Source of the DNA: Verrucomicrobiota bacterium
GTDB taxonomy: Bacteria > Verrucomicrobiota > Verrucomicrobiia > Chthoniobacterales > JAFAMB01
NCBI GenBank assembly: GCA_019237325.1
Contig: JAFAHI010000679.1
Span: 1-43,396, forward strand
Length of the DNA: 43,396 nt
Direction: 5' to 3'
The notes under the pieces are model-generated. The model was not told the origin of the DNA. It did no database searches and saw only the letters and a list, made by a program, of their open reading frames with translations. Made by a program: the position numbers and the translations under genes. Shown here piece by piece: positions 3,238 to 41,706 of this stretch (positions are counted from its first letter, which is position 1; every line of letters begins with the position of its first letter).

Positions 3238-3250
3238 CGCCGCGCGCGGA

Positions 3251-3693: not shown

Positions 3694-3704
3694 GAAACGA
3701 ACAG

Positions 3705-3735
3705 GGCCGCTCGGGCGGTTCTAACCCGAGCGGCC
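3705..3735. terminator. GC-rich hairpin (11-bp stem, 9-nt loop), terminator-like
   Basis: ggccgctcggg-cggttctaa-cccgagcggcc, followed by the T-containing 'tgcgtttcccgttt'. No adjacent gene end, so the function is unclear. Confidence 0.3.
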
Positions 3736-3946
3736 TGCGTTTCCCGTTTGGCTACGTTGTTTGCGGGTCATCCCCGCACTGGCTCGCTATGTTCGAAGGG
3801 ACCTCCGCACCGAGTGGATTGGAGGCGATCCCGTTCCGTACTAATGATTTTTGCGAACGTGGTTTCAGAGATCCCTGCGAAGCCCCGAATTTATTTTCTC
3901 TAGGCCCGCTTCTCGGCCGATGCCCCGCGCCGACAGACCGATTGTA

Positions 3947-5607: not shown

Positions 5608-5612
5608 GGTAG

Positions 5613-6338
5613 CTATTCGCCGAGACCCTTACCGAATACAAAGTTGACACCTGTTCCTTGCCCAGGGTTAGTCGGCGTCGCTGTGAATCGAAAGAATCTT
5701 AGCAGGATCAAAATATATTTCGGCCTGAGCGGGGCAACCGGGCTCGTGAGATGAGAATTTGCTCCCGCATCCTCTTCAACATCGTTCTCGATAGCGCCCA
5801 AGATCTCATACGACTTCGACTGACCGGACGAATGATTAGTCATCGTAAATGTCGCTTGATCCAGCAATTCGGCAATGTCGATAAGGCTTAGTTCATCAAA
5901 TGTGCTACTAAAATCGTGGCCGCTATGTGACGCCTTAGGCTTGCTTGGCAATTTGCCGCTCAGCACATAAGAATCACCCTCTATTTTGGTCCCGTTGAGG
6001 TAGGTATCGATCTGGAATGTGAAATGGTCTAAGAGCTCGATGACGTCCTTGAGAGAAAGCTTCTCTAGCGGCATCGACAAACGAGGATCGTCCTCGGTTT
6101 TCTGACCAGTGATTCCGTATATCGAAGCCGAGATTGGCCTATGCGTGACTCGGTCAGTGCATATCTTATTTACTATCGGATAGGCGTTTGGGAGGAACTT
6201 AGTAGCGAGATCTTCAAGATATCGTTTACCGAGCGGAAGATTTCCGCCCTGACCCTTTTTGGGTTTTGTAAAGGATTTGCCGGGCATGATGGTTGGTTTT
6301 CTAGGATTATATAAACGAAATCCCGGCAAAAATTTCAA
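5613..6338 (-). CDS. Two-repeat protein, candidate multi-core graspetide precursor
   Basis: 241 aa from TTG 6338, or 224 aa from ATG 6287. Internal duplication 'LSLKDVIELLDHFTFQIDTYLNGTKIEGD' / 'LSLIDIAELLDQATFTMTNHSSGQSKSYEILGAIENDVEEDAG'. It ends 5 nt before the ATP-grasp paralog. Confidence 0.55.
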   Translation of the reverse strand: MKFLPGFRLYNPRKPTIMPGKSFTKPKKGQGGNLPLGKRYLEDLATKFLPNAYPIVNKICTDRVTHRPISASIYGITGQKTEDDPRLSMPLEKLSLKDVIELLDHFTFQIDTYLNGTKIEGDSYVLSGKLPSKPKASHSGHDFSSTFDELSLIDIAELLDQATFTMTNHSSGQSKSYEILGAIENDVEEDAGANSHLTSPVAPLRPKYILILLRFFRFTATPTNPGQGTGVNFVFGKGLGE

Positions 6339-6401
6339 CGCTCCTGCCCAGTTTCACTTGTTTTCTGTGTCTCTGTGGTGAATCCAGGTCAGCGCCGGCT
6401 C

Positions 6402-9314
6402 TCAGTGAGGGAAGCTCCTCTCTATCTCGGCAATACGAGCCCGGGTTTCAGCGTCTTTCTTGTCAAAGCTGGCCATCAATTCCTGGAAACTGCTGTCTTG
6501 CTTAAAGACATCCAGGGAAGGATCGTCCCGCAAAAGATTGACTGCATTCGGTAACACGCTGATTGATTTCGGAAAAAGCTTACGCAAGAGCTCGTTCGCT
6601 TCATCTCTAAGCCCTAGAATCCGGTCGCTGACAGCGAGGTAGTATATCGCGTCCCGGTCCGTCGGGTGTATGCTGAGAAGCGATTTAGCTTGAGCCTGCA
6701 ATTTCGTTGCCTCAGCGCTAGCCCTGGTCGCGTCGCCCGACAAGTGATAGGCCAAAGCCGAGTGAAACTGGGCCCAGGCATCAGTGTTCGCCTTCGCCTG
6801 TGTAACCTGAATTACAAATGGCCAATCACTCAACCGTTCCGCACATTCGACCCGCAAATCGAGAGCGGATGGATTATAAGCGACGGCATCAGGAGGGAGA
6901 TCTTTCAGCTCGTTAAACGCCTTTTGATAGTCGCGCCGTTGGGCCAGCAGCTCACATTCTAACATCTTCCGCCGATCCGGATCGCTTTCGAGCTGAAGGG
7001 TTTTTTGCATCCATTTTTCGCGCAAGTCGTTCTCACCTATGACCGCGCAGATATAAGCCAAGAGATACGCCTTCCGCGGATCATTTGGATCGAGAGAATA
7101 CGACTTTCGCAGCATGGAATAGGCTTCGAAGTCTACCGATGAGCCTAGCCTTTGGCTGGCGGCCCTGAAATTAACCTCCGCATCGTTCGGAGCGAGCCGA
7201 AGCGCCTTGTTAATCGCTTCTCCAGCCTGATCGAATAAGCTTTTCCAAACGTAAGCTCGGGAAAGGACGACGTAGGCACGAGCCTGCGCCGGATCTATGG
7301 AAACGGCACGGTTGCCAAGGTCGATCGCTGAATCTACCCAGAACGCCTCCTCCCCAAAGCGGACATTCCGATCGATGTAGGCGTTAGCAAGACCCACATA
7401 GGCCAGCGAAAATTTAGGATCTAACTCTAAAGCCTGCCGGTAAAGCTCTACGGCTTTTTCGTTATCGTCCTTGTGGCGAAGGAGGTAGTAGGCCCGCCCC
7501 TGGAGAAAAAGATCGTACGCTGTGACGTTGTCCGTCGGTTTCTGCTGAATCTCGTCACGTTCGTTTGGGCTGAGGCGCACTTGGAGAGCTGAAGCCAGGT
7601 TTTCAGCGACATCTGTTTGAATAGCGAACAGGTCTCTCATTTCTCGGTTATAGGCGGCCCCCCAAAGGCGTTTGCCGGTCCGAGCATCGTATAGAACAGC
7701 GATAATTTTAATCTCTTGGTCCAACCGCTGCACACTGCTCTCCAGCACCGTTTGTACGTTCAATTCGCGGCCGATCTCATGCAGCGATTTCCTTGGTACT
7801 CCCGGTGCGGCCTTATATCCAAGGACCGAGTCGCGGGAGATAACCCGGAGGTCCGCAATCTTCGAAAGCTGAAAGATAACCTCGGTCGTAAGTCCATCGC
7901 TAAGATAATCGTTTTGCTTGTCTCCACCCACGTTATCAAATGGCAAAACCGCCACGGACTTCTCCCCTCCCCCTGCAGCAGGCATGCCGGGATGAAAGAA
8001 AAAGTACGCTCCTAGCACGCCGGCCAACACCAAGGCCACACCGCCGCCGATGAGGTAACTTTTTCCCAAGAGATGCCTTTTCCGCCGGGTTGCTGGAACC
8101 GGCACGCTCGTTTGCGCCACTCTGTGTCCCGCAAGGCTCCGCTGGGTCGCACGCACTATCGCCAAGAGATCTTCCGGAGTTTGCGGCCGGTCTTTCGGGT
8201 CTTTCTCAAGCAAATGGGTTAGCAACGCCACCATCGGTTGCGGGAAGTATTTCAGTTTGCTGATTGGTAACGGCGCTTGGAGATGTTGGGCCGCTACCTC
8301 CGATGGCGTACCGATAAACGGCGCGGATTTGGTCAACATCTGCCATAAGGTGACGCCGACCGAGTAGAGATCCGATCTTATATCGACCGGTCCGCAGCTG
8401 ATCTGCTCGGGACTCGCGTATCGCGGGGTACCCAAGAAAATTCCAGGTTCGGAGGCGGAAGATTCCTCTATGTCGCCAGTGGCGAACTTTACTAACCCGA
8501 AATCGATCACTTTGGCGGTTAGTTGGCCGTGGCTGTCTCGGGTCAGGATGATATTGGCGGGTTTGATGTCCCGGTGTACCAGCCCAGCTTCATGAGCGGC
8601 CGCCAGCGCAGAAGCGATTTGGGCCGTGATCTCCAGCGCTAATTTCGCGTCCAGTGGTCCGTGTTGGGCGATAAAAGCTTCAAGGGTTTGCCCCTCGATT
8701 AATTCCATCGCATAGAAATAGGAAGCTTCGGTGGAACCGAGATAGTAGATCGATGCGACGAAGGGATGGCGCAGCGACGCGGCGGCGCGCGCTTCCCGCA
8801 AGAAGCGGTTCTTAAGCGATTCGTTATGAAGCAGCCGGCTCGAAATCACTTTTAATGCTACCGGGCGTCGCAAGGTGGTGTCGGACGCTTTGTAAGTAAT
8901 CCCCATGGCTCCCCGGCCGAGCTCAACTGGTTTGCCATCGGAGTCGATCTCAACTTCGAAATGGGCATATCGCCGTTGGAAATGTTCGGCGACTAACAGG
9001 CTTAGATCAGCTGCTTCATCTGAAAACGAATCCATTGAGCTGCCGCTGGCCTGGCGGAGCATTTCTGCGCCCGGCGGCAGAGGTTGGTTCGGCGGTAACC
9101 CTTCAGTGGCGCCAGAGGCTTCCGCCTCTGCTTCGCTACGGCGCGACAAGTCCGCATCTCCCGCCGGGGGACCTTGGCTCGGTGACTCGCCCTTCACTTC
9201 GCTTTGGCGCGACGAATCCGCCTCCGCTTCGCTACGGCGCGGCGAACCAGATTCGGGATTTGGCGGTGTCTGGTTTTCTGGGTCGTCGGGTTTCCGCTCG
9301 CTACCGGCGCTCAT
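6402..9314 (-). CDS. Ser/Thr protein kinase with TM helix and extracytoplasmic TPR domain
   Basis: 970 aa. Hanks motifs 'GRGAMGITYKA', 'VALKVI', 'HRDIKPANIIL', 'DFGLVK' and 'GTPRYASPEQ'. One TM helix (LIGGGVALVLAGVLGAYFFF), a 'VAVLPFDNVGGD' module, then many TPR-like repeats. The start overlaps the sigma-gene stop (ATGA). Confidence 0.9.
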   Translation of the reverse strand: MSAGSERKPDDPENQTPPNPESGSPRRSEAEADSSRQSEVKGESPSQGPPAGDADLSRRSEAEAEASGATEGLPPNQPLPPGAEMLRQASGSSMDSFSDEAADLSLLVAEHFQRRYAHFEVEIDSDGKPVELGRGAMGITYKASDTTLRRPVALKVISSRLLHNESLKNRFLREARAAASLRHPFVASIYYLGSTEASYFYAMELIEGQTLEAFIAQHGPLDAKLALEITAQIASALAAAHEAGLVHRDIKPANIILTRDSHGQLTAKVIDFGLVKFATGDIEESSASEPGIFLGTPRYASPEQISCGPVDIRSDLYSVGVTLWQMLTKSAPFIGTPSEVAAQHLQAPLPISKLKYFPQPMVALLTHLLEKDPKDRPQTPEDLLAIVRATQRSLAGHRVAQTSVPVPATRRKRHLLGKSYLIGGGVALVLAGVLGAYFFFHPGMPAAGGGEKSVAVLPFDNVGGDKQNDYLSDGLTTEVIFQLSKIADLRVISRDSVLGYKAAPGVPRKSLHEIGRELNVQTVLESSVQRLDQEIKIIAVLYDARTGKRLWGAAYNREMRDLFAIQTDVAENLASALQVRLSPNERDEIQQKPTDNVTAYDLFLQGRAYYLLRHKDDNEKAVELYRQALELDPKFSLAYVGLANAYIDRNVRFGEEAFWVDSAIDLGNRAVSIDPAQARAYVVLSRAYVWKSLFDQAGEAINKALRLAPNDAEVNFRAASQRLGSSVDFEAYSMLRKSYSLDPNDPRKAYLLAYICAVIGENDLREKWMQKTLQLESDPDRRKMLECELLAQRRDYQKAFNELKDLPPDAVAYNPSALDLRVECAERLSDWPFVIQVTQAKANTDAWAQFHSALAYHLSGDATRASAEATKLQAQAKSLLSIHPTDRDAIYYLAVSDRILGLRDEANELLRKLFPKSISVLPNAVNLLRDDPSLDVFKQDSSFQELMASFDKKDAETRARIAEIERSFPH
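9121..9247. repeat. Three copies of a 16-17-nt motif (cttcgctayggcgcgrc) inside the kinase 5' coding region
   Basis: Copies near 9131-9147, 9197-9213 and 9227-9243. On the minus strand they encode the reiterated 'RRSEAEA / RQSEVKG / RRSEAEA' in the disordered N-terminus. Confidence 0.6.
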
Positions 9315-10081: not shown

Positions 10082-10194
10082 CGCGTGTACCTCTCTAAAT
10101 CTTTTAAGCCGAAAGCCTTCCAGGGGACAATGAATTTTGTTGGGAAACTGGCGAGCCGCGGTATGGGCAGGTCAGCCGCAATGCGGCGGCTCAT

Positions 10195-10223
10195 GATAGC
10201 CTAGGGCCTAGCCCTAGGCTATC
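10195..10223. repeat. Palindrome (12-bp arms, 5-nt loop) gatagcctaggg-cctag-ccctaggctatc
   Basis: Read directly. It lies in the 400-nt gap upstream of the ECF sigma gene. Confidence 0.7.
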
Positions 10224-21773: not shown

Positions 21774-22472
21774 TCAAAAACTATCGAAAATCGAAATCGA
21801 TTCCGACGCACAAAGCCTTACACAATCATTCCAAGTAATCTCTAAGAAAGGATCAAGCAACTTAAGGTTCCAAAGCAAGCGCCGTTTAATGGCCGCTTTG
21901 GTCTGGTCAAGGTCGCGGCTAATCGTCGCCGCGTGGCAGCCAAACATTCTGGCGAGACGTTGTTGCTCGACGCCATGTAAATAGACTAAACGGAGACAAA
22001 CCGACTCGCGAGGGGTTAGGCTGCTCAAGCTATCGGATAATGCATCTGCTAAAAGGGCGAGCACATCCGAATTATCATGCGCCGCTCCATCGGACCCATC
22101 GCCTCTATCCGCCGGCGAAGCGTCCTGATCCGGCTGCGGCTCAACTCCTCTTTCGCGCTTCCGATAGCCTGGACCGCGCCACCAGCTCTTCAATCGAGAG
22201 AGAGCCACAACCGTAATCCATGACCTCAATGAAGCGCGACCTTGATACATCTCCAAAAGCTTGACGGTTTTACCGTCACGGTCGACGCCCGCTAACAGGT
22301 CACCGGGGAGATCTTCAATAATCTCCCGCGCTTTTTCCTCGGAATCTGAGTCAGTACATTTCGAGAGCAGGACAGCCAAGCTGTAAGGTAACTCTTCGAG
22401 GACTGCATTGACAGCCGCTGAATCGCCCCCTAGCGCTGCCTGGGCGATATTCAAATCGTCTTGGTTCACCAT
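21774..22472 (-). CDS. ECF-like sigma-70 family factor
   Basis: Trimmed to ATG 22472 (MVNQDDL...), 232 aa. Region-2-like 'LRSWITVVALSRLKSWWR', an acidic linker, and region 4 HTH 'LTPRESVCLRLVYLHGVEQQRLARMFGCHAATISRDLDQTKAAIKRRL'. Confidence 0.75.
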   Translation of the reverse strand: MVNQDDLNIAQAALGGDSAAVNAVLEELPYSLAVLLSKCTDSDSEEKAREIIEDLPGDLLAGVDRDGKTVKLLEMYQGRASLRSWITVVALSRLKSWWRGPGYRKRERGVEPQPDQDASPADRGDGSDGAAHDNSDVLALLADALSDSLSSLTPRESVCLRLVYLHGVEQQRLARMFGCHAATISRDLDQTKAAIKRRLLWNLKLLDPFLEITWNDCVRLCASESISIFDSF

Positions 22473-22580
22473 ACCGACACTGACCGGCCCAGGATAGCGA
22501 TGCTGACAAGAAAGTCTACGAAAATGCAAACAAGCTAGGAGATAGAATGCAGGAGATAGGAGAGCGTTTCAAACTATCAT

Positions 22581-22691
22581 ACTGAGTAGATTCAGTAGAC
22601 GAAGTGGACCTGGACCGCTGGCGATCGTAGGGTATGGGCGTCTGCTACATCTCACATCTCACTTTCTCACTACTCACCTCTCACTTCTTAC
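22581..22691. repeat. AGTAGAC/AGTGGAC array and (TCTCACN)n array directly upstream of the GAF gene
   Basis: 'actgagtagattcagtagacgaagtggacc' at 22581-22610 and 'acatctcacatctcactttctcactactcacctctcacttcttac' at 22647-22691. Confidence 0.7.
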
Positions 22692-22697
22692 AGCTCG

Positions 22698-23318
22698 ATG
22701 TCTACCCGCCTCAATTTCCTGCCGGACGAACGCTTTGCTCCCCTCCGCACTTCACTAAAAGAGCGCCTCCAGAAAATGACGGACCTGATCACCCCGGAGA
22801 ATTTTCCTAGTTTGCTGGATTTCCGTTCCGGGAGCCTGCTCCATGACGTGTTCGCAGCGGTACGAGCGGATGAGGGCAGTGTCTGGATCCTGGACCAAGC
22901 AAAGGAACACTTGGTGGTCTCTTACGCCTCAGGTCCACACGCCGCCGACATAATGGGATTCAAGCAACCGCTTAGCGCAGGCATTGTGAGTACTTCGTTC
23001 ATCAGTGAACAGGGGTTTGCCGAGAACGACGTTTACCTGCATGAACTTCACAGCGGCCTGCTGGACGAGAAACTGCGCGTTACCACCTACGCCATGATTG
23101 TGGCGCCGTTTTATATTTTAGACGCCTGCCGAGGGGTTATCTCTTGCGTCCAATTGATCAATGTTCGGAATCAGGATGGGCGTTCGATACCGGCCGCGGA
23201 AACACCAGGCGGTTTCAGCATGGGTAACCTGGATGCAGTCAAACGAGCGGCATTAGTTCTCACCGACTTGCTCAATTACCGGCTCCTGCGGACCGCCATC
23301 GGTTGGGAAGCAAACTGA
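22698..23318 (+). CDS. Stand-alone GAF domain protein
   Basis: 206 aa. GAF-like pattern 'ADEGSVWILDQAKEHLVV...QPLSAGIVSTSFISEQGFAENDV...LRVTTYAMIVAPFYILDACRGVISCVQLIN'. The stop TGA shares one base with the ATG of the next gene. Confidence 0.7.
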   Translation: MSTRLNFLPDERFAPLRTSLKERLQKMTDLITPENFPSLLDFRSGSLLHDVFAAVRADEGSVWILDQAKEHLVVSYASGPHAADIMGFKQPLSAGIVSTSFISEQGFAENDVYLHELHSGLLDEKLRVTTYAMIVAPFYILDACRGVISCVQLINVRNQDGRSIPAAETPGGFSMGNLDAVKRAALVLTDLLNYRLLRTAIGWEAN

Positions 23319-24124
23319 TGAAAACCAGCTCTTGGATCACGGTCGAGCAAGCTCGTGAAGCGCTGAAGACTGGAACCGGCAAAAATATCAAGATTGCCGT
23401 GATCGACTCCGGCATCGAGGTTAGTCATCCAGACTTAAATGGGCTGCAACTAACCGACGATACTCATGTGATCGGCAGCGACCTACAACTGGTCGTTCGG
23501 CCTGGCGACGGCACCGATCTGTTCGGGCACGGAACAGCGGTGGCCGCGATTATCCGGTCATTGGCGCCCGAAGCGGAGATCGGTAGTTTCCGGGTCCTGA
23601 ATGAGAACAATGCTTCTCGCACCGAAGTAATCTGCGAAGGCGTCAATCTGGCACTGGATCGCGGCTATAATATTCTGAATTGCAGCTTCGGTTGTGGAGT
23701 AGCGGAACACATACATCGATACAAGGCCTGGATCGACCAAGCGTATCTAAAAGGTGTCCACGTGGTGGCGGCTTGTAACAATTACGATTACACCCGGCCA
23801 GAGTGGCCTGGTTATTTCCCCTCTGTAATCACCGTCAATTACGGTGAGCTAAAGGACAAAGAAGATTTCTACTATAAGCCGGGCAACCTGGTTGAGTTTG
23901 TCGCGCGCGGGACCGGCTTTGAGGCGGCCTGGAAAGGGGGCAAGCGACGCCGGATGCACGGTAGCAGTTTTGCCGCACCGCATGGAGCCGCTCTTCTTTC
24001 TCGGATTCTGTCGATCTATCCGGATCTGGCTCCACTCCAAGCAAAGTCTTTGCTGCACCAGCTCGCTAAGCCCTGGGACGAAAAAGCGTTCTCGACGCTT
24101 CTCGCTCCCAATGCGCCCCGATAG
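23318..24124 (+). CDS. S8 (subtilisin-like) serine peptidase, no signal peptide
   Basis: 268 aa from ATG 23318. Triad motifs 'IAVIDSGI' (Asp), 'HGTAVAAII' (His) and 'HGSSFAAPHGAA' (Ser). The N-terminus is hydrophilic. Confidence 0.9.
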   Translation: MKTSSWITVEQAREALKTGTGKNIKIAVIDSGIEVSHPDLNGLQLTDDTHVIGSDLQLVVRPGDGTDLFGHGTAVAAIIRSLAPEAEIGSFRVLNENNASRTEVICEGVNLALDRGYNILNCSFGCGVAEHIHRYKAWIDQAYLKGVHVVAACNNYDYTRPEWPGYFPSVITVNYGELKDKEDFYYKPGNLVEFVARGTGFEAAWKGGKRRRMHGSSFAAPHGAALLSRILSIYPDLAPLQAKSLLHQLAKPWDEKAFSTLLAPNAPR

Positions 24125-24142
24125 GAACGCTGGGACGTGGCG

Positions 24143-24225
24143 AGGCAGTGGACGTAGTGGACTGAGTAGACGGAGTAGATCCGAGCCGGGTTATTTCACC
24201 CCGTCCACTGATGTCCACTGCCTAC
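24143..24225. repeat. Hairpin element with AGTGGAC/AGTAGAC arms
   Basis: 'aggcagtggacgtagtggactgagtagacggagtagat' at 24143-24180 and the inverted 'cgtccactgatgtccactgcctac' at 24202-24225. Confidence 0.7.
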
Positions 24226-24309
24226 ACGCCCTCTGCTCCCTTCTGCAAGCGGCCGCTCCGGCCGCGTCTATCCGGTAAGTACTGAATCTTTTCTTTTACC
24301 ACTTTCCTT

Positions 24310-25485
24310 ATGCCAACCGATACTTTCATCTCCAGTCAGAAGGCACCGGAACGGCGACTTTTGTTCTGGTGGTATCTCGAGCCAACTACCTTCTTTGGCG
24401 CCATCCTTCTTTGTTTCTGGCTGTGTTCAACAACGGCTGCGTCGATGTGCGGCAGCGGCTTCGTGATTCAACAGAACGGTTATATCCTAACGAACTACCA
24501 CGTCATCGAGGACGCGACCCGAATTACGATCACAGTTCCGGGACGTCAGGCTGTTTCTGCTCGCTTAGTCACCACCGATCAGGAGAAAGATCTCGCGATC
24601 CTGCAGGTATCGCTCGGTAATTTGACGGCGCTGCCTATCACCTCTTCCGAAGCGGTCCAGGTCCTCGATTCGATCACGGTGCTAGGATACCCGTTACCAA
24701 ACGAGCTCGGAACGGCGCTTTCAGCGTCCGCCGGTAAGGTGAACGCCGTGAGAGACCGACGCAATGACAGCACACGCTTATTCCAGATCGACGCCAATGT
24801 TAATCCGGGCAATAGCGGGGGCCCGTTACTCAACAATCACGGAGAGGTGGTGGGAATCGTTGTCGCCAAAATCAACTCTCTGCAATATGCAAAAGAAAAT
24901 GGGGCGTTACCGGAGCGGATTAACTTCGCGATTCCGATCGATGAAGCTCAAGAGCTTCTTCGCAAAGTGATTCCCAATTTCAGGCTCTCCAACCGGCAAG
25001 AAGTGTTGACCGACCAGCAAGTGTTTCAGTCGGCCAAAGGCTCGACCGTACTGATTGTAGCAGACCAAGACGAAACCAGCCGCGCGACCTACGCAGAAAA
25101 TGAAGACAACGGATCCCTGGCGCGATTCATCGGCGAGTTTGTTCGAGCCGGTGAAATCGGCTCGGGCGAAGGTCAAACCGACTATTACGCCTCGCCCTGC
25201 GACTATTTCGAAAACGGGCAATGTACGCGCGAGTCTATTTTTCGGGAGTTGCTAGATTACAATCACAAATGGCCGTCTCGCCAATATCAATTGTTAGGTA
25301 CGCCGTTGGTCAATGTTACGAATCAGGGAGACCGCTACGACGTTAGTTTCAAAGTCTCTTTCACGCTGCGCAACCGGGCTAAGACCGTCAGTGGTGTCTG
25401 TTATTTTCGCGCACAACTGATTCGCAGCCAGGACAGCTTCTTGATTACGACGATCCGGGAGAAGTTCGCCGCAGACGGAAGCTAG
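24310..25485 (+). CDS. Trypsin-like (S1C/DegP-type) serine protease with N-terminal TM/signal anchor and a C-terminal domain of unknown function
   Basis: 391 aa. Hydrophobic 'TTFFGAILLCFWLCSTTAA'. Triad 'LTNYHVIED', 'KDLAILQV' and 'NPGNSGGPLL'. About 170 aa at the C-terminus have no recognisable motif. Confidence 0.85.
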   Translation: MPTDTFISSQKAPERRLLFWWYLEPTTFFGAILLCFWLCSTTAASMCGSGFVIQQNGYILTNYHVIEDATRITITVPGRQAVSARLVTTDQEKDLAILQVSLGNLTALPITSSEAVQVLDSITVLGYPLPNELGTALSASAGKVNAVRDRRNDSTRLFQIDANVNPGNSGGPLLNNHGEVVGIVVAKINSLQYAKENGALPERINFAIPIDEAQELLRKVIPNFRLSNRQEVLTDQQVFQSAKGSTVLIVADQDETSRATYAENEDNGSLARFIGEFVRAGEIGSGEGQTDYYASPCDYFENGQCTRESIFRELLDYNHKWPSRQYQLLGTPLVNVTNQGDRYDVSFKVSFTLRNRAKTVSGVCYFRAQLIRSQDSFLITTIREKFAADGS

Positions 25486-25486
25486 T

Positions 25487-25710
25487 GAAGGCGAAAGGGC
25501 GAATGGGCGAAACGGCGATGCGGCGAAGTGACGTATGGGCATGACGACGGGCTGTGCATGCGGGTAATTCCAGGACTCCGAAAACGGATGGGACCTATGG
25601 GACTAATAGGACTAATGGGTCCCGTCTCATTAGTCCCATGGGTCCCATAAGTCCCATCCGATCTCAGCACCCACGAACGCCCCTCCGCCCATTCGCCGTT
25701 TCGCTCTTCC
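25487..25710. repeat. Nested hairpin element: GGCGAAR outer arms, ATGGGACY inner arms
   Basis: Outer arms 25487-25527 / about 25678-25710. Inner arms 25585-25623 / 25627-25660 with a 3-nt loop. Confidence 0.75.
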
Positions 25711-25756
25711 CCCGCCCTTGCAACCGAGGCGCCTACACGCGATGGTTCGGCGCTAG

Positions 25757-27802
25757 ATGCCTATTCTGGACGAGCTCATGCCCGCGCTGAAGTCCGTTCG
25801 CGGAATTCGCAGATTTTGGCATCGGCGCTCTGAATGGTTTCCTCGCCTGGTTTCCAAATATCAGGAGGCCGATCAAACTGACACCGCGCTCCGATTCAGC
25901 AAGGACAGCTCGGTGTATACCCGCTTAGCCAAAGCGGCGACGCAGCTTGGCGAAAATCTGATCGCCCTGGAAATCGCGAGCGAGGGCAGCGACAGCCTGG
26001 AGACAGCTTTTCGGCAGAAATTCTCGGAAATAGTAACAGCTCAACAGATCGACCTGGCCCGCGAACGGGCGATCGCTTTGTCGAGGTTAGGCTCGATTCG
26101 AGAAGCGCAAAAGATCTTGCGAGACCTTTTAGCGATCCGAGCCGACGATGATAAATCGTTGAGTGCGCTGGGACGGACTTACAAAGACCTGGCTAAGTTT
26201 CCAGGCCCAGCCCAAAAAAAGTTCCTGGAACGATCGCGCGCCTACTATTTGAAGGCTTACGCGGTGAATGGTGAATACTATCCCGCGATTAACGCCTGCA
26301 CTTTATCGCTCTGGCTGAACGACCGGGAACCCGCCCGTCGATTAGCCGGAGAGGTGAAAAGGCTTTGCCTCAACTCCCTGACGTCTAATCCCGACGACTA
26401 CTGGGCTCTAGCGTCGATGGCCGAAGCCGAGTTAGTCTTAAGCGCCGATATGGGTGAGATTACTCAACCAACTTTTGAGTATTACCAACAGTACTCCCGG
26501 CTCATACACCAAAAGCGCGGCTGGGGCGATCTCAGCTCCACCAGCGAACAAGCAAAACGAATCTGTGAATCGCTGGATTGGCACTTCGGCGCCCTCAAAC
26601 GAATTTTCCGCGTGCCGGATGTCGTCATTTTCTCCGGCCATATGGTCGATGCACCAGGACGCCAGGTGCCACGTTTCCCAGGCAAATTCGCGGACGCCGT
26701 TGCAGAACAGATACGCCGAACCTTGGATTCCCTTGACGCCCGGATCGGGATCTCATCCGCAGCCTGCGGTTCGGACCTTCTCTTCATCGACGCTATGTTG
26801 GCGCGGGAAGCTGATATCCAGGTGGTTCTACCTTGGCGAAAGGAAGAGTTCAAACAGACCAGTGTGTTAGCTGGCGGCCAGGAGTGGGCACAGCGGTTCG
26901 ATCGAGCCATCGACGACGCCACTTCGCTCACCTACCTTTCGCAACAGGGCGCTCCCAGCGGCAACCTCGGTTACGTCTATTGCAACGACTGCATGAACGG
27001 TATGGCCTTGTTCCGGTCCGAAAAACTAGGCTCCGATGTGCGTCCCCTGGCAGTTTGGGACGGCCGGCGTGGAGACGGTCTAGGCGGTACTTCCAGCTTT
27101 GTAGATTTCTGGACATCGAAAGGTCACGCGGTCGAAGTGATTGACCTCGAAAAGATCACCGATGCGAAACCAAAGGATGAGAAGTTTGATCGGATCTCAT
27201 TCGGAGAAATCACTGTTAGTGAAGGTCAACAGACCATAAAAACACTTCTGTTTGCCGACGTAGTCGGTTACAGCAAGATCCCCGAAAACCAGATCAAATA
27301 CTTCGCTCCGGAATTCCTGGGAATGATTTCCTCGTTGATCTCCGAGACGCCGCGCCCGGTCCTAACCAATACTTGGGGTGACGCCATTTATTTCGTGTTC
27401 GATGAACCGGTATCGGCGGGCAATGTCGCGCTCCGCCTGCTAGAAACGCTGAAACAAGGAACCTGGCGACGAGAACTGACGGCGTCGCTCAACCTCCGGA
27501 TCAGTCTGCATACCGGGCCAGTCATCCTCTGCCTCGACCCCGTCATTCGCCAAATTTCTTTCACTGGATCACACGTGAGCCACACCGCACGCATCGAGCC
27601 GATTGTAAGAGAAGGCGAAGTTTGGGCCACGGAAGCCTTCGTCTCTTATGCGATGATTGACAGCCAAAAACGAGGCAACCCGTGCAGGTTCGGGTTTGAC
27701 TATCTTGGCCAAGTTGAGTTTGCCAAGAACTATGGCCGATATCCACTCTACCGATTGAGCTCACCGGTTACGGACGGCGCTGATACAGAAGGCACGGAAT
27801 AA
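25757..27802 (+). CDS. Multidomain protein: helical TPR-like (DUF4071/TRAF-binding-like) + SLOG/DprA-like Rossmann module + class III nucleotidyl cyclase domain
   Basis: 681 aa. It contains 'GEYYPAINACTLSLWL' and a Rossmann-like module ('VVIFSGH', 'GISSAACGSDLLFIDAMLAREADIQVVLP', 'LAVWDGRRGDGLGGTSSFVDFW'). Cyclase motifs are 'LLFADVVGYS', 'NTWGDAIYFVF', 'RISLHTGPV' and 'GSHVSHTARIEP'. Confidence 0.8.
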   Translation: MPILDELMPALKSVRGIRRFWHRRSEWFPRLVSKYQEADQTDTALRFSKDSSVYTRLAKAATQLGENLIALEIASEGSDSLETAFRQKFSEIVTAQQIDLARERAIALSRLGSIREAQKILRDLLAIRADDDKSLSALGRTYKDLAKFPGPAQKKFLERSRAYYLKAYAVNGEYYPAINACTLSLWLNDREPARRLAGEVKRLCLNSLTSNPDDYWALASMAEAELVLSADMGEITQPTFEYYQQYSRLIHQKRGWGDLSSTSEQAKRICESLDWHFGALKRIFRVPDVVIFSGHMVDAPGRQVPRFPGKFADAVAEQIRRTLDSLDARIGISSAACGSDLLFIDAMLAREADIQVVLPWRKEEFKQTSVLAGGQEWAQRFDRAIDDATSLTYLSQQGAPSGNLGYVYCNDCMNGMALFRSEKLGSDVRPLAVWDGRRGDGLGGTSSFVDFWTSKGHAVEVIDLEKITDAKPKDEKFDRISFGEITVSEGQQTIKTLLFADVVGYSKIPENQIKYFAPEFLGMISSLISETPRPVLTNTWGDAIYFVFDEPVSAGNVALRLLETLKQGTWRRELTASLNLRISLHTGPVILCLDPVIRQISFTGSHVSHTARIEPIVREGEVWATEAFVSYAMIDSQKRGNPCRFGFDYLGQVEFAKNYGRYPLYRLSSPVTDGADTEGTE

Positions 27803-29930: not shown

Positions 29931-31670
29931 TTACTTGTTCCCCGAATTCGACCCCGTTACACCCAGACGGCGCGCTTCGGCGAAGTCGGCTTTGGCCTTA
30001 TCTCCCTGTCCTGTTTTCTGATAAGCCATCGCTCGGTTGTAGTAGGCACGACCGTAATTCGGATTGAGCCGGACCGCTTCGTTGAAATCGTTAATGGCGT
30101 CGTCAGTCTTTCCTTTCTCAGAGAACGCAATCCCTCGATTGTAATAGGCCAACATGTAACTCGGATTTCTCCGGATCGCTTCGTTATAGTCGGCCATCGC
30201 GCGGTCGATATCTTTCAGGTCGTCGTAACAGAGACCCCGGTTGTTGTACGCATCCAAGAAGTTGTCGTTGATGTCGATCGCATAAGAATAATCGCTGATC
30301 GCCTTCTTGTAGTTTCCCAGGGTCTGGTAACACAACGCCCGCATGTAATAAGCGTTGGCATATTTCTGCTCGCGGTCGAGGGTTGCAGAGAAATCGGAAA
30401 TCGCCGGGTCGTATTCCTTAGCGTAGTAGTGAAGCAGGCCGCGATTGTAATAGGGATCGGCATATTGCGGATCAGCCCGCATGGAGTCCTCATAATCGCT
30501 CTGCGCTTGCTTGGCATTGCCCTTGTCATAATAGGCCAGGCCCCGATTATTGTAGGCCCGGGAAACGTTTCCGTTGAGATGCAAGGCTTGGTTGTAGTCC
30601 GCAATAGCGTTGTCGTACTGCTTCGCCTTCCAGTAAACGATTCCGCGGTCATTGTAATAGTCAGGATTATCTGACCGCAAACGAATCGCCGTATTGTAAT
30701 CGCCTAGCGCTTGCTCGTATTGCTCCAAATTTTTATAGCAATTGCCGCGCTTGCTATAGGAGTCGGGATTGTTGCCATCAAGTCGGATCGCGGTCGTATA
30801 GTCACTGAGCGCCGCCTGGTAGTCTCCTTGAGTTTCATGTGCCTGCCCCGCAGCCAACGCGCTGGCCACATCCGTCGGACTCGAGGTCTCGGTCGCCCGC
30901 GGCTTCGGTGGGGGTGAAAACGGGGTTGCGCTCGGCGCTTGTACGACGACCTGTTCTTTCTTGAAGCCTTGGCTCACCACATACGCTGCCACCAGCCCGA
31001 AACAAACCAGTCCAATCACCAAGAAGGCCAGCATTGCGGTTACGGCGATTACGGCAATTGGAGCTTTCGGCTTCACCGGAGCCGGCGCCCCGGGAACTGC
31101 GCCGGGATGAACCGGAAAACCGGTCTGCGGCGCGCCGCCACCGCCTCGATCCGGTGGTCCGCTAGAACTCGGGGTCTGGCCGCTGCCAACCGGAACCGGT
31201 CGAGGAGTCCGATTGGCTGGGCTTTCTTCGCGGTGCCTTATTGGAGCCTGACTGGTCTGGCCGCTGGCTCGTTCCAGCAAAATCTGAATCGTCGAAGTGA
31301 GTTGCTTCAGGTGTTGCTCCAGAGGCGGAGTCAAAGCATCAAGCCAATGCGGCGAGCTGATATAATACTCCAGCGCTCTCGCCGGTGGCACATCTTCGAT
31401 TCGAAACGGGATGATCGGGATACCATGATGTACGGCCCGCTCAACCTCGCGCTTCACTTGGTTCGATCGATTTGCGTTCGAGGAGAAAATGAGGAGCATC
31501 GCGCGGCATTTCTCGAGTGCTTCAATAATAGCCTCTGCGTAATCCATCCCTGGCAGAACGTCGCGCGGTGCAATCCAACAACGGATTCCGGCAGATTCGA
31601 GAGCCGCACAGGCAGCATCCGCGGTGAGTTTGTCAGCGATCGCGTAACTGATGAATACATCCACAGCCAT
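29931..31670 (-). CDS. TIR domain - Pro-rich linker - TM helix - TPR repeat protein
   Basis: Trimmed to ATG 31670 (MAVDVFISYA...), 579 aa. TIR_2-like 'VFISYAIADK...IRCWIAPRDVLPGMDYAEAIIEALEKCRAMLLIFSSNANRSNQVKREVERA'. TM helix 'IAVIAVTAMLAFLVIGLVCFGLVAAYVV'. About 9 TPRs (A..DY..AI.L.P....AY.NRG). Confidence 0.9.
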   Translation of the reverse strand: MAVDVFISYAIADKLTADAACAALESAGIRCWIAPRDVLPGMDYAEAIIEALEKCRAMLLIFSSNANRSNQVKREVERAVHHGIPIIPFRIEDVPPARALEYYISSPHWLDALTPPLEQHLKQLTSTIQILLERASGQTSQAPIRHREESPANRTPRPVPVGSGQTPSSSGPPDRGGGGAPQTGFPVHPGAVPGAPAPVKPKAPIAVIAVTAMLAFLVIGLVCFGLVAAYVVSQGFKKEQVVVQAPSATPFSPPPKPRATETSSPTDVASALAAGQAHETQGDYQAALSDYTTAIRLDGNNPDSYSKRGNCYKNLEQYEQALGDYNTAIRLRSDNPDYYNDRGIVYWKAKQYDNAIADYNQALHLNGNVSRAYNNRGLAYYDKGNAKQAQSDYEDSMRADPQYADPYYNRGLLHYYAKEYDPAISDFSATLDREQKYANAYYMRALCYQTLGNYKKAISDYSYAIDINDNFLDAYNNRGLCYDDLKDIDRAMADYNEAIRRNPSYMLAYYNRGIAFSEKGKTDDAINDFNEAVRLNPNYGRAYYNRAMAYQKTGQGDKAKADFAEARRLGVTGSNSGNK

Positions 31671-31715
31671 CTTATGTCCCCGACGAGAAAGTTTGTAGGA
31701 ATTGCAGCATTTTTT

Positions 31716-31763
31716 AGCATCCAACGCCAACAAAAGCGCATGCTTTTGTTGGCGTTGGATGCT
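31716..31763. repeat. Perfect 22-bp-stem hairpin (agcatccaacgccaacaaaagc-gcat-gcttttgttggcgttggatgct)
   Basis: Arms 31716-31737 and 31742-31763. It lies 46 nt upstream of the TIR gene start and about 115 nt downstream of the NlpC/P60 stop. Confidence 0.85.
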
Positions 31764-37929: not shown

Positions 37930-37985
37930 GAGGAACGCTACCCAAGAACACCTCGCACGACCGCGCAAGCGGAAACTAGTCGGAG

Positions 37986-38109
37986 ACTCGCCTTAGGCTC
38001 GCTCCGAATGACAAATGACAGATCACAGATCACAAATCTGGAGCCTTCGCGCCCCGTAGTTTGTGATCTGTCATTTGTGATCTGTCATCCGAACGAGCCT
38101 AAGGAGAGT
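37986..38109. repeat. Modular hairpin element: 'cgccttaggctcg' outer arms and ATGACAG/ATCACAG heptamer inner arms
   Basis: Outer arms 37986-38006 / 38090-38109. Inner arms 38007-38036 / 38060-38088. Confidence 0.8.
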
Positions 38110-38114
38110 TCGGC

Positions 38115-39041
38115 TTACCAATAGTTCCGGGCGTAGGGTCCATAGGGCCCGTAAGGTCCCCATGGCCCGTACGGAGCGGGACCGTAAGGTCCATATGGTC
38201 TATAGGGGCCGTAAGGCGAGTACACGCGATAAACTTTTCGTACCACACCCAAGGCTAGCAACGTTCGAGGGTTAAGACGTCCCGTCGGAGGCAAACCTCG
38301 CGATGCTTGAAATCTGCCGATCGCGTCCACCGTGTTTTCACCTAGTTCCCCATCGATTGGTCCGCGATAATAACCGCGGCGCGCGAGTGCCATCTGAACC
38401 CTGGCAACTACCCGCGGGTTGCCTCGACCAGGCGCTTGTCGATAGGACGGTCCTCCTCCCCCATAAGACGGTCCTCCATACGGATTTCCGTAGTTTCCTC
38501 CGCCAGAAGGCCCTCGGTTATAGCCTTGGTGCGGCGGTTCGTTTTCCGGCGTCTCTTCGTTCGGTCCCTGCTGTTCCTCTTGGGGTCCCCGATAAGTCGG
38601 AGTTTGCGGCTGCACTTTCGGGCGAGCCTGCTCCGAAGGCGTAGGCCGCGGAGTTGCTAGGTGAGGCCGGGGAGTCGGAGATGCGACCGCCCGCGGAGGC
38701 TGTGCTTGCGGTGCCGAGGTCTGCGGCTTCGGTGTGCTGCTTGGGGTAGTAGCTTCGGTTTCGTTGCCATGCCGCGTCGCATTCTGCGGAGGCGGATAGT
38801 TCCCCGTCTGTAGTCCTAAAGAATGCATGGTCTCGTCGTTCAAACCGCCAGTCACCTTTAAGCCGTAGCGTATTTGATAACGGCGAATCGCAGCATCCGT
38901 TTCGGAACCCGGTTGACCAGTCGCTTCCCCGTAAAAGAACCCTTGGTCTTTTAATTTTTGCTGGACCGCTTTGGTCAGCTCGTCACCCCAGGCACTAGCC
39001 GATAAGACGGCAAGCCCGAGAATAAGAAAGAAAGTCTTCAT
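38115..39041 (-). CDS. Secreted protein with two peptidoglycan-binding (PG_binding_1) domains and Pro/Gly/Tyr-rich regions
   Basis: Trimmed to ATG 39041 (MKTFFLILGLAVLSASAWG signal), 308 aa. Contains 'LKDQGFFYGEATGQPGSETDAAIRRYQIRYGLKVTGGLN' and 'LARRGYYRGPIDGELGENTVDAIGRFQASRGLPPTGRLN'. The tail is 'YGPYRPYGPYGPAPYGPWGPYGPYGPY'. Confidence 0.8.
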   Translation of the reverse strand: MKTFFLILGLAVLSASAWGDELTKAVQQKLKDQGFFYGEATGQPGSETDAAIRRYQIRYGLKVTGGLNDETMHSLGLQTGNYPPPQNATRHGNETEATTPSSTPKPQTSAPQAQPPRAVASPTPRPHLATPRPTPSEQARPKVQPQTPTYRGPQEEQQGPNEETPENEPPHQGYNRGPSGGGNYGNPYGGPSYGGGGPSYRQAPGRGNPRVVARVQMALARRGYYRGPIDGELGENTVDAIGRFQASRGLPPTGRLNPRTLLALGVVRKVYRVYSPYGPYRPYGPYGPAPYGPWGPYGPYGPYARNYW

Positions 39042-39150
39042 CGCGAGACAGTAGGAATTTCTAATGCTGTAGCCGTACTGACGCACGTTACTGAATTTGG
39101 TTTCATAAGCGAGTCGGACTTTTGCTCGCGAGGGAGGGAAGGTCGTCCCT

Positions 39151-39241
39151 TCGTACTCGTCCTCGTCGTCGTCCTCGTCCTCGGTTCCGGCCGGACGGGG
39201 TGATGGAGTATTGGAGTGACGGAGTAATGGAGTGTTGGAGG
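39151..39241. repeat. (GAGGAC/GACGAC)n array plus a GGAGTRWTG nonamer-like array
   Basis: 'tcgtactcgtcctcgtcgtcgtcctcgtcctcgg' at 39151-39184 and 'ggtgatggagtattggagtgacggagtaatggagtgttggagg' at 39199-39241. Confidence 0.65.
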
Positions 39242-39467
39242 ACTGCTCGGTATCCGAATTGTCCCCGGGATTGCGGGGTCGAACAGCTCTATTTACCCGA
39301 TAAATGCAGTAAAATAAGAGCGGATCTGATGACGAGCAATAATCCGACCCAAGCGAGGAGCTGGACCCCGACTCGACGAAGAACGTGCAACCAATCGTTT
39401 GGTAGAGGCATGGGCGGGTCGGGGGCAGACTAGCGGCGGATTCAAGATAGATCAGGTCGGGCTTTTG

Positions 39468-39731
39468 TCCCGTAGGGACTAGATGAAGGTAGCCAGGTAA
39501 TTCATTGCCTGGAAACACTCCGAGATCGAATCCGTCCCGTAGGGAACGGTCTGATTGGTGGAAGCCACGGTCATCATTCGATAACCAAACGTGTTCGCAA
39601 ACCCAGATAGGCGACGTGCAACGGTATCACAACTCGCGGAAACCACTCACACCGTACCCTACGGGACGGTCCGTTATGGGGCGATTCCAGGAAATAAATT
39701 GCCTGGCTACCATCATTCAGTCCGTTCGGGA
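39468..39731. repeat. MITE-like nested palindrome (GGTAGCCAGGNAAT core)
   Basis: Outer arms 39468-39514 / 39685-39731 (gtcccg..ggtagccaggtaattcattgcctggaa). Inner arms 'ccgtcccgtagggaacgg' at 39532-39549 and 'ccgtaccctacgggacgg' at 39652-39669. Confidence 0.75.
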
Positions 39732-39759
39732 CCAGAGAGCTCCGTCCCCCGATCGGCGC

Positions 39760-40539
39760 CTAACCCTTATACTCCGCCAACACGCTCGCGATCTTTTCTT
39801 CAGCTAACTCGGTAAAAGCAATTCGCGTCTTCGGCTTCCGCTCGAGAAGCGCCGTCTCAACCGAGTAATCTTTCAATTGAGTCTTCAGGAAATTCTTCAG
39901 CTCTTCTCGCGAAGGGATATCGGCGTGATCCTCGTCCATGGTGTAAAGACCGACCCCCCACGCTCTGACGGCCAAGGCTAACGAACTATTTAAGGGGCCA
40001 ACTTGCTCATTGCGGAGGAACAAGGCGATTTGCTCGGCGGAACGCCGCGTTCCGGAGATCACGGCAAAATGGTCTCTCCCTTTTCCCGAGCTCATGGAGT
40101 TGGCCGTCATAGAGCCATCGTAATCGAGCGCAACGAAGAGATCGTCAGCGGGCGTAGCCCCGACTTCGGCAAAGAGTAGCCGGGCCAGGTACGGAGCGCC
40201 GTAAATCTGTTCAAAAGCCTGTTTCAGCGCCGGGCTAAAGCTATACGTCGCCATGCGACGCAAGGAGACATCGCTAACTGACCGGGCAAACCCTTCGGTG
40301 CTAGCCAGTTCAATGGCCATCATGCGAAGACGTTCGATATCTCCGGGGTGGCCAATTCCTCCGAGAGCGATCTGGTCATAGATCTCGAAGATTTTCTTAC
40401 GATCCTTGCCGAAGGTCAGAAGTAACACTCCTTCCTGGCAACTCAATGCAATGGTGGGGCTGCCGGGCGCGAGCTCGCTTTCGATGTATTCTCGCCGATT
40501 CGCGATCGCCTCGACCCAACGATACGGTTCATCTATCAT
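39760..40539 (-). CDS. prcA: Bacterial 20S proteasome alpha subunit
   Basis: 259 aa, 5 nt downstream of prcB. 'GSPTIALSCQEGVLLLTFGKDRKKIFEIYDQIALGGIGHPGDIERLR' follows the PrcA pattern. No N-terminal Thr nucleophile. Confidence 0.85.
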   Translation of the reverse strand: MIDEPYRWVEAIANRREYIESELAPGSPTIALSCQEGVLLLTFGKDRKKIFEIYDQIALGGIGHPGDIERLRMMAIELASTEGFARSVSDVSLRRMATYSFSPALKQAFEQIYGAPYLARLLFAEVGATPADDLFVALDYDGSMTANSMSSGKGRDHFAVISGTRRSAEQIALFLRNEQVGPLNSSLALAVRAWGVGLYTMDEDHADIPSREELKNFLKTQLKDYSVETALLERKPKTRIAFTELAEEKIASVLAEYKG

Positions 40540-40544: not shown

Positions 40545-41354
40545 TTAAATCGCCGCCTGAAACGATGAAGATAGCACGTCGTAGGGCACGGTGGTGATCC
40601 CGTCCTGGTTCACGATCTTAACGACCGGGAAGATCTTTCCCTGACGATCGATACCGCCGGTTGCGGTATCAGCCTCTGCCGCGGTATCGAGCGCGCGTAA
40701 AGCAATGGTAAGCGCACCCTTCTCATCTAGCTCTCGCAGCGGCGTTTTTCCCCAGGCGTTCTCATAATACAATATGCTCCGGACGGAAGGCCCGCCGGAA
40801 CCGCTCGCAGCAAAATCGGTGGCTTCGAACTGCGCGCCCATCGCATCATAGAAAAAGACCTTGGCTGGATCGTCCGCGCCATGATCATAGGTCGCGAATA
40901 ACGGCACCACGACGCCAACGCCTTGTAGAACCATCCCCAAATTGTCGCGCAGCAGCTTGGAAAGCGCGCGGACCTTACCTTCAAGGCTCATCTCCTGTAA
41001 CTGGCTACGGCGGTAAAACTGGAATGAATGTTCCAGCACTCGAGCCATTTCCCAGGCAGTAGCGGGTGATCCAGCGATCGCCATCACGGAGTGCCGGTCG
41101 ATTTCCAACACTTTGTCCGCTCGGTCGTACATCACCACGTTGCCTGCCGTGGCTCGGCGGTCCCCTGCAATCAGGACTCCGTTAGAAAACTTGAAGGCAA
41201 GAACCGTGGTGGCCTGCGTTTCTACAACCGGCTGGCGTCCGCCTACAGCCGGCAGATGTCCTTGAAGATGTTTATCTTCTCGTAAGGCACCAAAGCGCCG
41301 CAGCAAAGTCACGAAATCGCCCGCGTCCGCGGAATTCGATTCAAGTAACTCCAT
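40545..41354 (-). CDS. prcB: Bacterial 20S proteasome beta subunit (48-aa propeptide, Thr49 nucleophile)
   Basis: 269 aa. 'ETQA|TTVLAFKFSNGVLIAGDRRATAGNVVMYDRADKVLEI' carries the Thr1/Asp17/Lys33 equivalents. Confidence 0.9.
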   Translation of the reverse strand: MELLESNSADAGDFVTLLRRFGALREDKHLQGHLPAVGGRQPVVETQATTVLAFKFSNGVLIAGDRRATAGNVVMYDRADKVLEIDRHSVMAIAGSPATAWEMARVLEHSFQFYRRSQLQEMSLEGKVRALSKLLRDNLGMVLQGVGVVVPLFATYDHGADDPAKVFFYDAMGAQFEATDFAASGSGGPSVRSILYYENAWGKTPLRELDEKGALTIALRALDTAAEADTATGGIDRQGKIFPVVKIVNQDGITTVPYDVLSSSFQAAI

Positions 41355-41355
41355 T

Positions 41356-41532
41356 TTACTGGCCAGTCCGCTGCCGGTAGCGCTTCGACTGGTTCGGATC
41401 GACCTTTCGCATCCGCTTCAACAAATCTTTTGTGTCCGGCTTGGAGACATCAGGACTCCGCGGCCCGTCTCCATCTCCTTGCTTAGGTTCCCAAGGTGCC
41501 GGTGCTGGTGGTTTTTGCGTCCTCTCGGGCAT
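41356..41532 (-). CDS. ubact: UBact-type (Pup-like) small protein modifier; not in the ORF track (58 aa)
   Basis: My manual translation of the minus strand gives MPERTQKPPAPAPWEPKQGDGDGPRSPDVSKPDTKDLLKRMRKVDPNQSKRYRQRTGQ*. ATG at 41530-41532, TAA at 41356-41358, 1 nt before the prcB ATG. The disordered N-terminus and the conserved 'LLKRMRKVDP..SKRYRQRTGQ' tail fit the family. Confidence 0.8.
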   Translation of the reverse strand: MPERTQKPPAPAPWEPKQGDGDGPRSPDVSKPDTKDLLKRMRKVDPNQSKRYRQRTGQ

Positions 41533-41581
41533 ATACGTACAGTACTGAGTTACAAATTGGAAAGCAACTCAGAGCTCGCTC

Positions 41582-41706
41582 CGGACTCGCCTTAGGCTCG
41601 TCCGAATGACCAATGACAGATGACATAGTGTCGGCAGCGGAAACTCCGGATCTGTCATTTGTCATCTGTAATCTGTCATGCGGAGCGAGCCTAAGGCGAG
41701 TCTCCG
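41582..41706. repeat. Modular hairpin element: 'cgccttaggctcg' outer arms and ATGACAG heptamer inner arms
   Basis: Outer arms 41582-41604 / 41681-41706. Inner arms 41605-41627 / 41650-41679. It lies between the LysM gene stop and the UBact start. Confidence 0.8.

Follow-up and report, generated by a model that had tools for sequence, protein, structure and literature searches.

The stretch of DNA analysed here (the window) comprises 43,396 nucleotides of a single contig and carries, directly 5' of the proteasome gene prcB, a reading frame of 58 codons that was missed because the default listing of open reading frames (ORFs) begins at 60 aa. A sequence-only reading of the window had taken this frame for a gene of UBact, the modifier that was reportedly described by Lehmann, Udasin, Livneh & Ciechanover in 2017 (BBRC 483:946-950). 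The locus raises the questions of whether the frame is a functional gene, to which family its product belongs, and by which enzymes such a product could be attached to proteins destined for the proteasome encoded next door. The host of the window is a soil member of the Chthoniobacterales that resembles Candidatus Udaeobacter. The features discussed below are listed in Table 1.

Table 1. Features of the window and their positions.
Feature	Position	Strand	Length	Description
UBact gene	41356..41532	-	58 aa	Putative Pup-like small protein modifier, C-terminus ...RYRQRTGQ; PF20513, NF033388, pN/pS
prcB	40545..41354	-	269 aa	20S proteasome beta subunit, with propeptide; PF00227, TIGR03690
prcA	39760..40539	-	259 aa	20S proteasome alpha subunit, divergent; PF00227, TIGR03691
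ORF overlapping UBact	41483..41665	-	60 aa	Spurious
PG_binding_1 gene	38115-39518	-		Peptidoglycan-binding
TIR-domain and TPR protein	29931-31733	-	600 aa	
TPR-S/S8/GAF/sigma cluster	21786-26680			Syntenic with L088 58-4259
Acido-Lenti-1 sRNA match	10174-10218	-		Rfam
Ser/Thr kinase with TPR repeats	6402-9314	-	970 aa	
Seven ORFs of at least 400 aa				Ser/Thr kinase with TPR repeats; TPR-S; TIR-TPR; metallo-beta-lactamase-rhodanese; peptidoglycan-binding; phosphofructokinase; GNAT/FemAB-like
Palindromic element, first copy	41584-41702		~120 nt	Intergenic; outer arms at 41584-41600 and 41686-41702
Palindromic element, second copy	37985-38110		~120 nt	Intergenic
Short near-palindromic repeats	39519-39759			Downstream of prcA
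Region of high contig depth	39691-39781			Suggested to be a short, widely repeated element

Gene structure and family assignment

The frame begins with an ATG and translates as MPERTQKPPAPAPWEPKQGDGDGPRSPDVSKPDTKDLLKRMRKVDPNQSKRYRQRTGQ, exactly as in the hand translation of the sequence-only reading, and the close spacing to prcB noted there is also read directly in the sequence: the stop codon TAA (41358-41356) is followed by a single A (41355) and then by the ATG of prcB. Since a TGA lies in frame 13 codons upstream of the start codon, with no ATG, GTG or TTG in between, 58 aa is the longest form that the gene can have in the window. Homologues share the conserved start MP(E/D)R(T/I)Q(K/R)P. 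Longer versions in databases (71-102 aa) were rejected as start-codon miscalls, because their extensions are unrelated to one another and an in-frame stop is present in the window. Neither a Shine-Dalgarno-like motif nor a sigma-70-like promoter was found upstream of the gene, and promoter, terminator and Rfam scans around it yielded nothing informative.

The 58-aa protein was matched by both UBact family models, namely Pfam PF20513 (82.3 bits, E=2e-23, profile positions 2-43 of 43, gathering cutoff 27.8 bits) and the NCBIfam equivalog NF033388 (86.3 bits, E=1.2e-24, positions 2-54 of 54, cutoff 35 bits). The similarity to UBact that had been claimed is significant with either model, and no Pup model was matched at E<=1 (Pfam) or E<=0.01 (NCBIfam); at these thresholds the Pfam scan returned UBact and a sub-threshold DUF3563 only, and the NCBIfam scan returned UBact only. 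A search of 5.8 billion proteins yielded 626 homologues, the best 120 of which all carry PF20513 at identities of 81-100%; several close homologues, from metagenome-assembled genomes (MAGs) of Chthoniobacterales or Candidatus Udaeobacter, bear the NCBI name 'ubiquitin-like protein UBact'. In a scan with one genome per species, relatives of UBact were present in at least 548 stretches, and the best 80 of these all belong to the Chthoniobacterales. The frame almost certainly encodes UBact.

The gene had been called unannotated, which holds for the ORF track with its 60-aa cutoff but not for public assemblies: 117 blocks of these, six NCBI MAGs included, have exactly this protein of 58 aa among their called genes. 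The family, its models and the exact protein are already public, so that no new kind of system is involved, and PGAP with NF033388, as standard annotation, would name the gene. What the assignment does is to mend a blind spot of the 60-aa cutoff and to supply the first gene of the proteasome operon.

Conservation and expression

The coding potential of the frame was assessed with 88 orthologous coding sequences, 83 of them distinct. Pooled pairwise pN/pS was 0.116 in the UBact frame, whereas the two remaining frames gave 3.26 and 1.92. Among the 83 distinct orthologues the third position was variable in 55 of the 58 codons, the first position in 24 and the second in 22, and constraint was strongest in the C-terminal 24 codons (pN/pS 0.058). 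Between the window and locus L001, 34 of 174 nucleotides differ without a single amino-acid change. Because the DNA of the window is just 81-91% identical to that of the nearest loci, the conservation of UBact reflects selection and not recency. The gene is under strong purifying selection, and its ORF is far beyond what chance would produce.

RNA contigs of four soil metatranscriptomes cover UBact, and in two of these a contig crosses the junction between UBact and prcB (X25, 41115-41517; X27, 41215-41518). Co-transcription of the two genes is supported but not proven by these contigs, which come from close relatives and from a kind of library that can contain DNA.

The C-terminal sequence ...RYRQRTG[Q/E] is invariant among the UBact orthologues. 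The end predicted by the sequence-only reading, ...YRQR(T/S)G(E/Q), is found in the window as RYRQRTGQ. Regarding the database homologues, RYRQRTGQ is the end of 106 and RYRQRTGE that of 13 out of 119; regarding the genomic orthologues, all 88 end in either Gln (77, codon CAG or CAA) or Glu (11, codon GAG or GAA). The Glu-ending forms are spread over at least seven sequence groups, and five of them have an amino-acid sequence otherwise the same as that of the nearest Gln-ending form. A position that is limited to Gln and Glu and toggles between them is what would be expected if the reactive group were the gamma-carboxylate of a terminal Glu; the restriction lends indirect support to a conjugation chemistry.

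A disordered, Pro/Gly-rich N-terminus and a basic C-terminal helix had also been proposed, and both agree with the amino-acid composition (12 Pro or Gly among residues 1-33, 9 Lys or Arg among the last 25) and with an AlphaFold2 model built on 17 orthologues (mean pLDDT 66.7, the values of 58-81 being only indicative). In the model, residues 1-33 are predicted to lack secondary structure (pLDDT about 60), and two short helices are predicted at residues 34-43 and 48-56 (pLDDT 67-81). With 58 aa the protein also falls within the size range of UBact (about 50-90 aa). The predicted shape fits the description of Pup as a 'bihelical unit plus tail' (Iyer et al. 2008, PMC2588565).

The proteasome operon

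The product of prcB matches PF00227 with E 7.4e-26 and the bacterial beta-subunit model TIGR03690 (20S_bact_beta) with 169.7 bits, under the cutoff of 191.9. Around the end of the propeptide its sequence reads ...ETQA|TTVLAFKFSNGVLIAGDRRAT...DKV, and Thr1, Asp17 and Lys33 are found by direct reading at the canonical active-site spacing. The divergent prcA product scores 24.3 bits against PF00227 (cutoff 22.4), and its best NCBIfam match is TIGR03691 (20S_bact_alpha), which covers positions 12-228 of 229 with 64.3 bits, under the cutoff.

In all relatives inspected, prcA follows prcB. The order UBact-prcB-prcA is conserved, and stop and start codons overlap or are separated by 1-4 nt in the great majority of the 88 orthologues. 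As the sequence-only reading had implied, the ORF is a constant companion of the proteasome genes, being conserved directly in front of prcB at each of the 87 related loci retrieved around a UBact gene. It opens a UBact-prcB-prcA unit. The spacing in the window, with a single nucleotide between the stop codon and the ATG, suggests that UBact may be translationally coupled to prcB.

The operon and its surroundings in the window have the layout TonB receptor - LysM - UBact - prcB - prcA - PG_binding_1 - PFK, which is common to the loci L002 and L006; in this type of layout, a LysM-domain gene precedes the UBact-proteasome genes. In three other loci the proteasome genes are followed by Amidase_3 and PG_binding_1 genes with gaps of at most 15 nt or with overlaps (L001 11791-13370, L007 11869-13715, L093 13966-15726). 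Only the PG_binding_1 gene is found in the window, about 700 nt after prcA, and its likely true start is the Met of a signal peptide, MKTFFLILGLAVLSASAWG. The linkage of the UBact-proteasome operon to cell-wall genes is conserved.

Search for conjugation enzymes

Pfam scans took in 25 of the 36 window ORFs of at least 150 aa, and the rest were covered by tblastn with one probe each. The probes were sequences of M. tuberculosis PafA and Mpa, used only after validation; the former was validated by its match to PF03136 (571.5 bits) and the latter by comparison with Mpa of PDB entry 7px9 (residues 1-609, 1338 bits). According to Pfam, none of the seven window ORFs of at least 400 aa encodes a Pup_ligase (PF03136) or an AAA protein, and tblastn with the PafA probe found no Dop/PafA homologue in the 43-kb window. 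With no ligase in the window, the presence of Dop or PafA is answered at the level of the lineage only.

Around 82 of the 87 related UBact loci (up to 10 kb on each side) neither a Dop/PafA nor an Mpa gene was found. In the other five (L031, L034, L049, L070 and L093) a Pup_ligase gene is adjacent to UBact, 0.7-1.9 kb upstream; tblastn with the PafA probe gave strong matches (E 1e-67 to 1e-71) in the first four of these, 1.2-1.9 kb upstream of UBact. The ligases of L034, a locus on a contig of 21,607 bp, and of L070 are full-length proteins that match PF03136 with 420-424 bits, and DUF4198, GYF_2 or LysM genes lie between ligase and UBact. On the 4.5-Mb contig of L093 (ligase P0155) the gene order is ligase - GYF_2 - UBact - prcB - prcA - Amidase_3 - PG_binding_1. 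No Mpa homologue was detected by tblastn at E<=1e-3 in the window and 90 loci, 1.43 Mb in all.

Searches with the L034 ligase and then with the ligase P0184 yielded thousands of PF03136 proteins; among the matches listed, several are NCBI-named proteins from MAGs of Chthoniobacterales and Verrucomicrobiota, and the cluster of P0184 at 90% identity has 451 members. Ligase genes that stand alone (loci L088-L092) are located on three distinct contigs, in GCA_035556975.1, in GCA_003219295.1 and on an ENA contig of 484 kb; the ligases P0184, P0300 and P0253 were traced to the assemblies GCA_035556975.1, GCA_003219295.1 and ERZ25039533. The three contigs have kept the same neighbourhood, Pterin_4a - DUF5069 - ligase - PDZ proteases (two PDZ/trypsin), and no UBact, proteasome or AAA gene was found within 3-10 kb on either side of the ligase. 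When the assemblies of P0184, P0300 and P0253 were compared with the UBact loci, no genome with both a ligase and a UBact gene of the detached type was found.

Genes for a TPR-S protein, an S8 peptidase, a GAF protein and a sigma factor form a cluster that the window and L088 share in synteny. In L088 the ligase is about 6 kb away from this cluster; in the window the cluster is about 15 kb away from UBact, no ligase is found beside it and other genes occupy the corresponding side.

The Chthoniobacterales show an adjacent and a detached layout, and the window is of the detached type. The enzyme genes lie outside the UBact operon in the lineage of the window, in which a single Pup_ligase homologue was detected, elsewhere in the genome of relatives. 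The search for dop, pafA and mpa homologues elsewhere, to which the sequence-only reading had pointed, was thus successful in part: the lineage has a Pup_ligase gene, but the window has no ligase and no Mpa appeared in the 1.43 Mb searched. The detached layout departs from an earlier survey (Iyer et al. 2008, PMC2588565), based on the genomes available at the time, in which the Pup gene was 'invariably adjacent' to a PafA gene.

Properties of the Pup_ligase enzyme

The ligases of the Chthoniobacterales score 318-334 bits against the PafA equivalog (cutoff 551) and 308-320 bits against the Dop equivalog (cutoff 492). They were aligned to PafA and read at the diagnostic positions tabulated in Hecht et al. 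2020 (PMC7947786). Both the shared GhExE motif (as GIETEYG) and the catalytic Asp (within LYLDMG) are retained. Around the catalytic Asp the ligases have LDMG-H, as against LDVGSH in PafA and VDHA in Dop; they have (A/S)SP in place of ATA in PafA and SAP in Dop; an insert of 11 residues is present at the site of the 37-residue loop of Dop; and the alpha-loop, HIVNDIYQWVQFN, is unlike that of PafA and unlike that of Dop. Near-identical ligases are named 'PafA2 family protein', 'proteasome accessory factor' or 'Pup amidohydrolase' by NCBI, a variety that stems from the same ambiguity between PafA and Dop.

The near-equal scores and the diagnostic residues matching neither enzyme indicate that the Chthoniobacterales Pup_ligase is neither clearly a PafA nor clearly a Dop and, as judged from these residues, represents a putative third type. 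The existence of a potentially active Pup_ligase orthologue in the lineage is supported but not proven.

Proposed mechanism and alternatives

The best explanation overall, which we consider likely, is that the window carries a functional UBact gene whose product serves in Pup-like tagging for the PrcAB proteasome. UBact, known from some Gram-negative phyla, is a Pup-like, intrinsically disordered small protein modifier. By analogy with Pup, its C-terminal Gln would be deamidated to Glu, the gamma-carboxylate of which would be phosphorylated with ATP by an enzyme of the Pup_ligase family (glutamine-synthetase fold); the activated Glu would then form an isopeptide bond with a substrate lysine, and the disordered tag would be engaged by an unfoldase, so that the PrcAB 20S proteasome, the product of the neighbouring genes, degrades the substrate. 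Deamidation of the Gln-ending form is established for Pup (PMC2588565), and by the same analogy we infer that the Gln-ending UBact would need a Dop-like deamidase, as the sequence-only reading had supposed. Conjugation for degradation as such is stated with somewhat more reserve than the overall explanation, as the probable mode of action of UBact.

Its length of only 58 aa and the failure to find a Shine-Dalgarno-like motif or a sigma-70-like promoter upstream could suggest that the frame is a chance ORF or an untranslated leader of prcB, with the overlapping 60-aa ORF as the real gene. The substitution pattern disposes of this reading, pN/pS being 0.116 in the UBact frame and above 1.9 in the others. 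The HMM matches are full-length, and the upstream extensions that some database entries carry show no conservation. The 60-aa ORF does exist as an ORF, but it has no family match in the Pfam scan and lies mostly in a palindromic repeat element that is missing from a relative, and its description as spurious in the sequence-only reading stands. Another reading is an ordinary actinobacterial-type Pup orthologue, given that the protein agrees with Pup in size class, in its disordered-plus-helical build, in the terminal Gln or Glu and in the position beside prcB, and that verrucomicrobial homologues were first counted as Pup (Iyer et al. 2008, PMC2588565). The family scans contradict this, however, with 82-86 bits for the UBact models and no match to a Pup model at the thresholds given above, and the C-terminus is TGQ and not GGQ or GGE; a plain Pup orthologue is effectively excluded.

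The main rival is a UBact that is not an attached tag but a non-covalent partner of the 20S proteasome, be it an assembly factor, a gate regulator or an adaptor. Such a role would explain why UBact stayed with prcBA while the ligase gene drifted away: the coupling of UBact to prcB is tight everywhere, whereas 82 of the 87 loci lack a ligase nearby and Mpa was not seen. An experimental demonstration of UBact conjugation was also not found in the searchable literature, in which UBact receives passing mention only. On the other hand, a non-covalent partner leaves the strict and repeated toggle between Gln and Glu unexplained, for which the chemistry of gamma-carboxylate ligation accounts, and a Pup_ligase orthologue with intact catalytic motifs has been retained; it is abundant within the Chthoniobacterales, and at five loci it lies beside UBact. 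We regard the non-covalent role as quite improbable, and Pup-like tagging is the reading followed here.

A more specific version of Pup-like tagging, which we put forward as speculative and on the whole unlikely, is that the UBact-20S operon of Udaeobacter-type Chthoniobacterales is uncoupled from its enzymes, and that one stand-alone ligase, neither Dop nor PafA, deamidates UBact, ligates it and perhaps also removes it, the Mpa-type ATPase being absent or replaced. If this were true, one of the most abundant groups of soil bacteria would possess a minimal tagging system with a single enzyme. The detached operon, the enzyme intermediate between Dop and PafA and the recurrent toggling between Gln and Glu are mildly interesting at the level of the lineage, and the soil Chthoniobacterales are a reasonable group for testing whether UBact is conjugated, and by how many enzymes.

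Repeat elements and other features

An imperfect palindromic element of about 120 nt, which is REP- or MITE-like, is present in two intergenic copies in the window. In the copy next to UBact the outer arms, GACTCGCCTTAGGCTCG, are 100% complementary, and the inner part contains ATGACAAATGACAGAT-type repeats. One contig of a soil metatranscriptome joins position 41553 to position 41675, skipping 121 nt, which indicates that the element is missing from a relative. The element makes up the greater part of the spurious 60-aa ORF and, when translated, also the false N-terminal extension of the database protein P0004.

Downstream of prcA, short near-palindromic repeats of the sequences GACCGTCCCGTAGGGTACGG and GACCGTTCCCTACGGGACGG are found. 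Contig depth in the region of high depth reaches 488 in one metatranscriptome, with many contigs diverging on both sides, a pattern suggestive of a short element with many copies across these genomes or communities.

The match to the Rfam Acido-Lenti-1 sRNA covers the full model with 37 bits, equal to the gathering score (E=6e-05). Besides the TIR-TPR and kinase-TPR genes of the window, TIR-TPR genes were seen on the flanks of the UBact locus in L001, L003, L004 and L005. In L093 a stretch of 6 kb without called genes (2770-8962), which may be an rRNA operon, is located 1 kb upstream of the ligase-UBact-proteasome locus.

Comparison with known systems

In UBact systems as described in 2017, the modifier gene is said to share a cluster with homologues of Dop/PafA and Mpa, as is also stated for Pup-type genes (Iyer et al. 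2008, PMC2588565); such clustering is a trait of the gene context and not of the protein. The gene of the window resembles UBact in that both family models are matched over their full length, in the ...RYRQRTG[Q/E] end, in the position directly 5' of prcB-prcA and in the verrucomicrobial host. It differs from the reported cluster in that UBact, prcB and prcA are on their own, flanked by a LysM gene and a peptidoglycan-binding gene, and in relatives the ligase homologue is located elsewhere in the genome.

With the Pup system of M. tuberculosis (Pup, Dop, PafA, Mpa and PrcBA) the locus has in common a small modifier, disordered and with a helical C-terminal part as far as can be predicted, that ends in Gln or Glu and is encoded beside prcB, and the lineage has a Pup_ligase of the glutamine-synthetase fold. 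Deamidation followed by ATP-dependent gamma-glutamyl-lysine ligation would presumably be shared as well. Unlike Pup, the protein of the window matches no Pup model and ends in TGQ, as against GGQ or GGE; the ligase of the lineage is equidistant from PafA and Dop, and Mpa was not found near the loci searched. In some Planctomycetes a single Dop/PafA homologue is present (Hecht et al. 2020, PMC7947786), and the Pup_ligase of the Chthoniobacterales, which appears to fit neither the Dop nor the PafA clade, resembles that enzyme by description.
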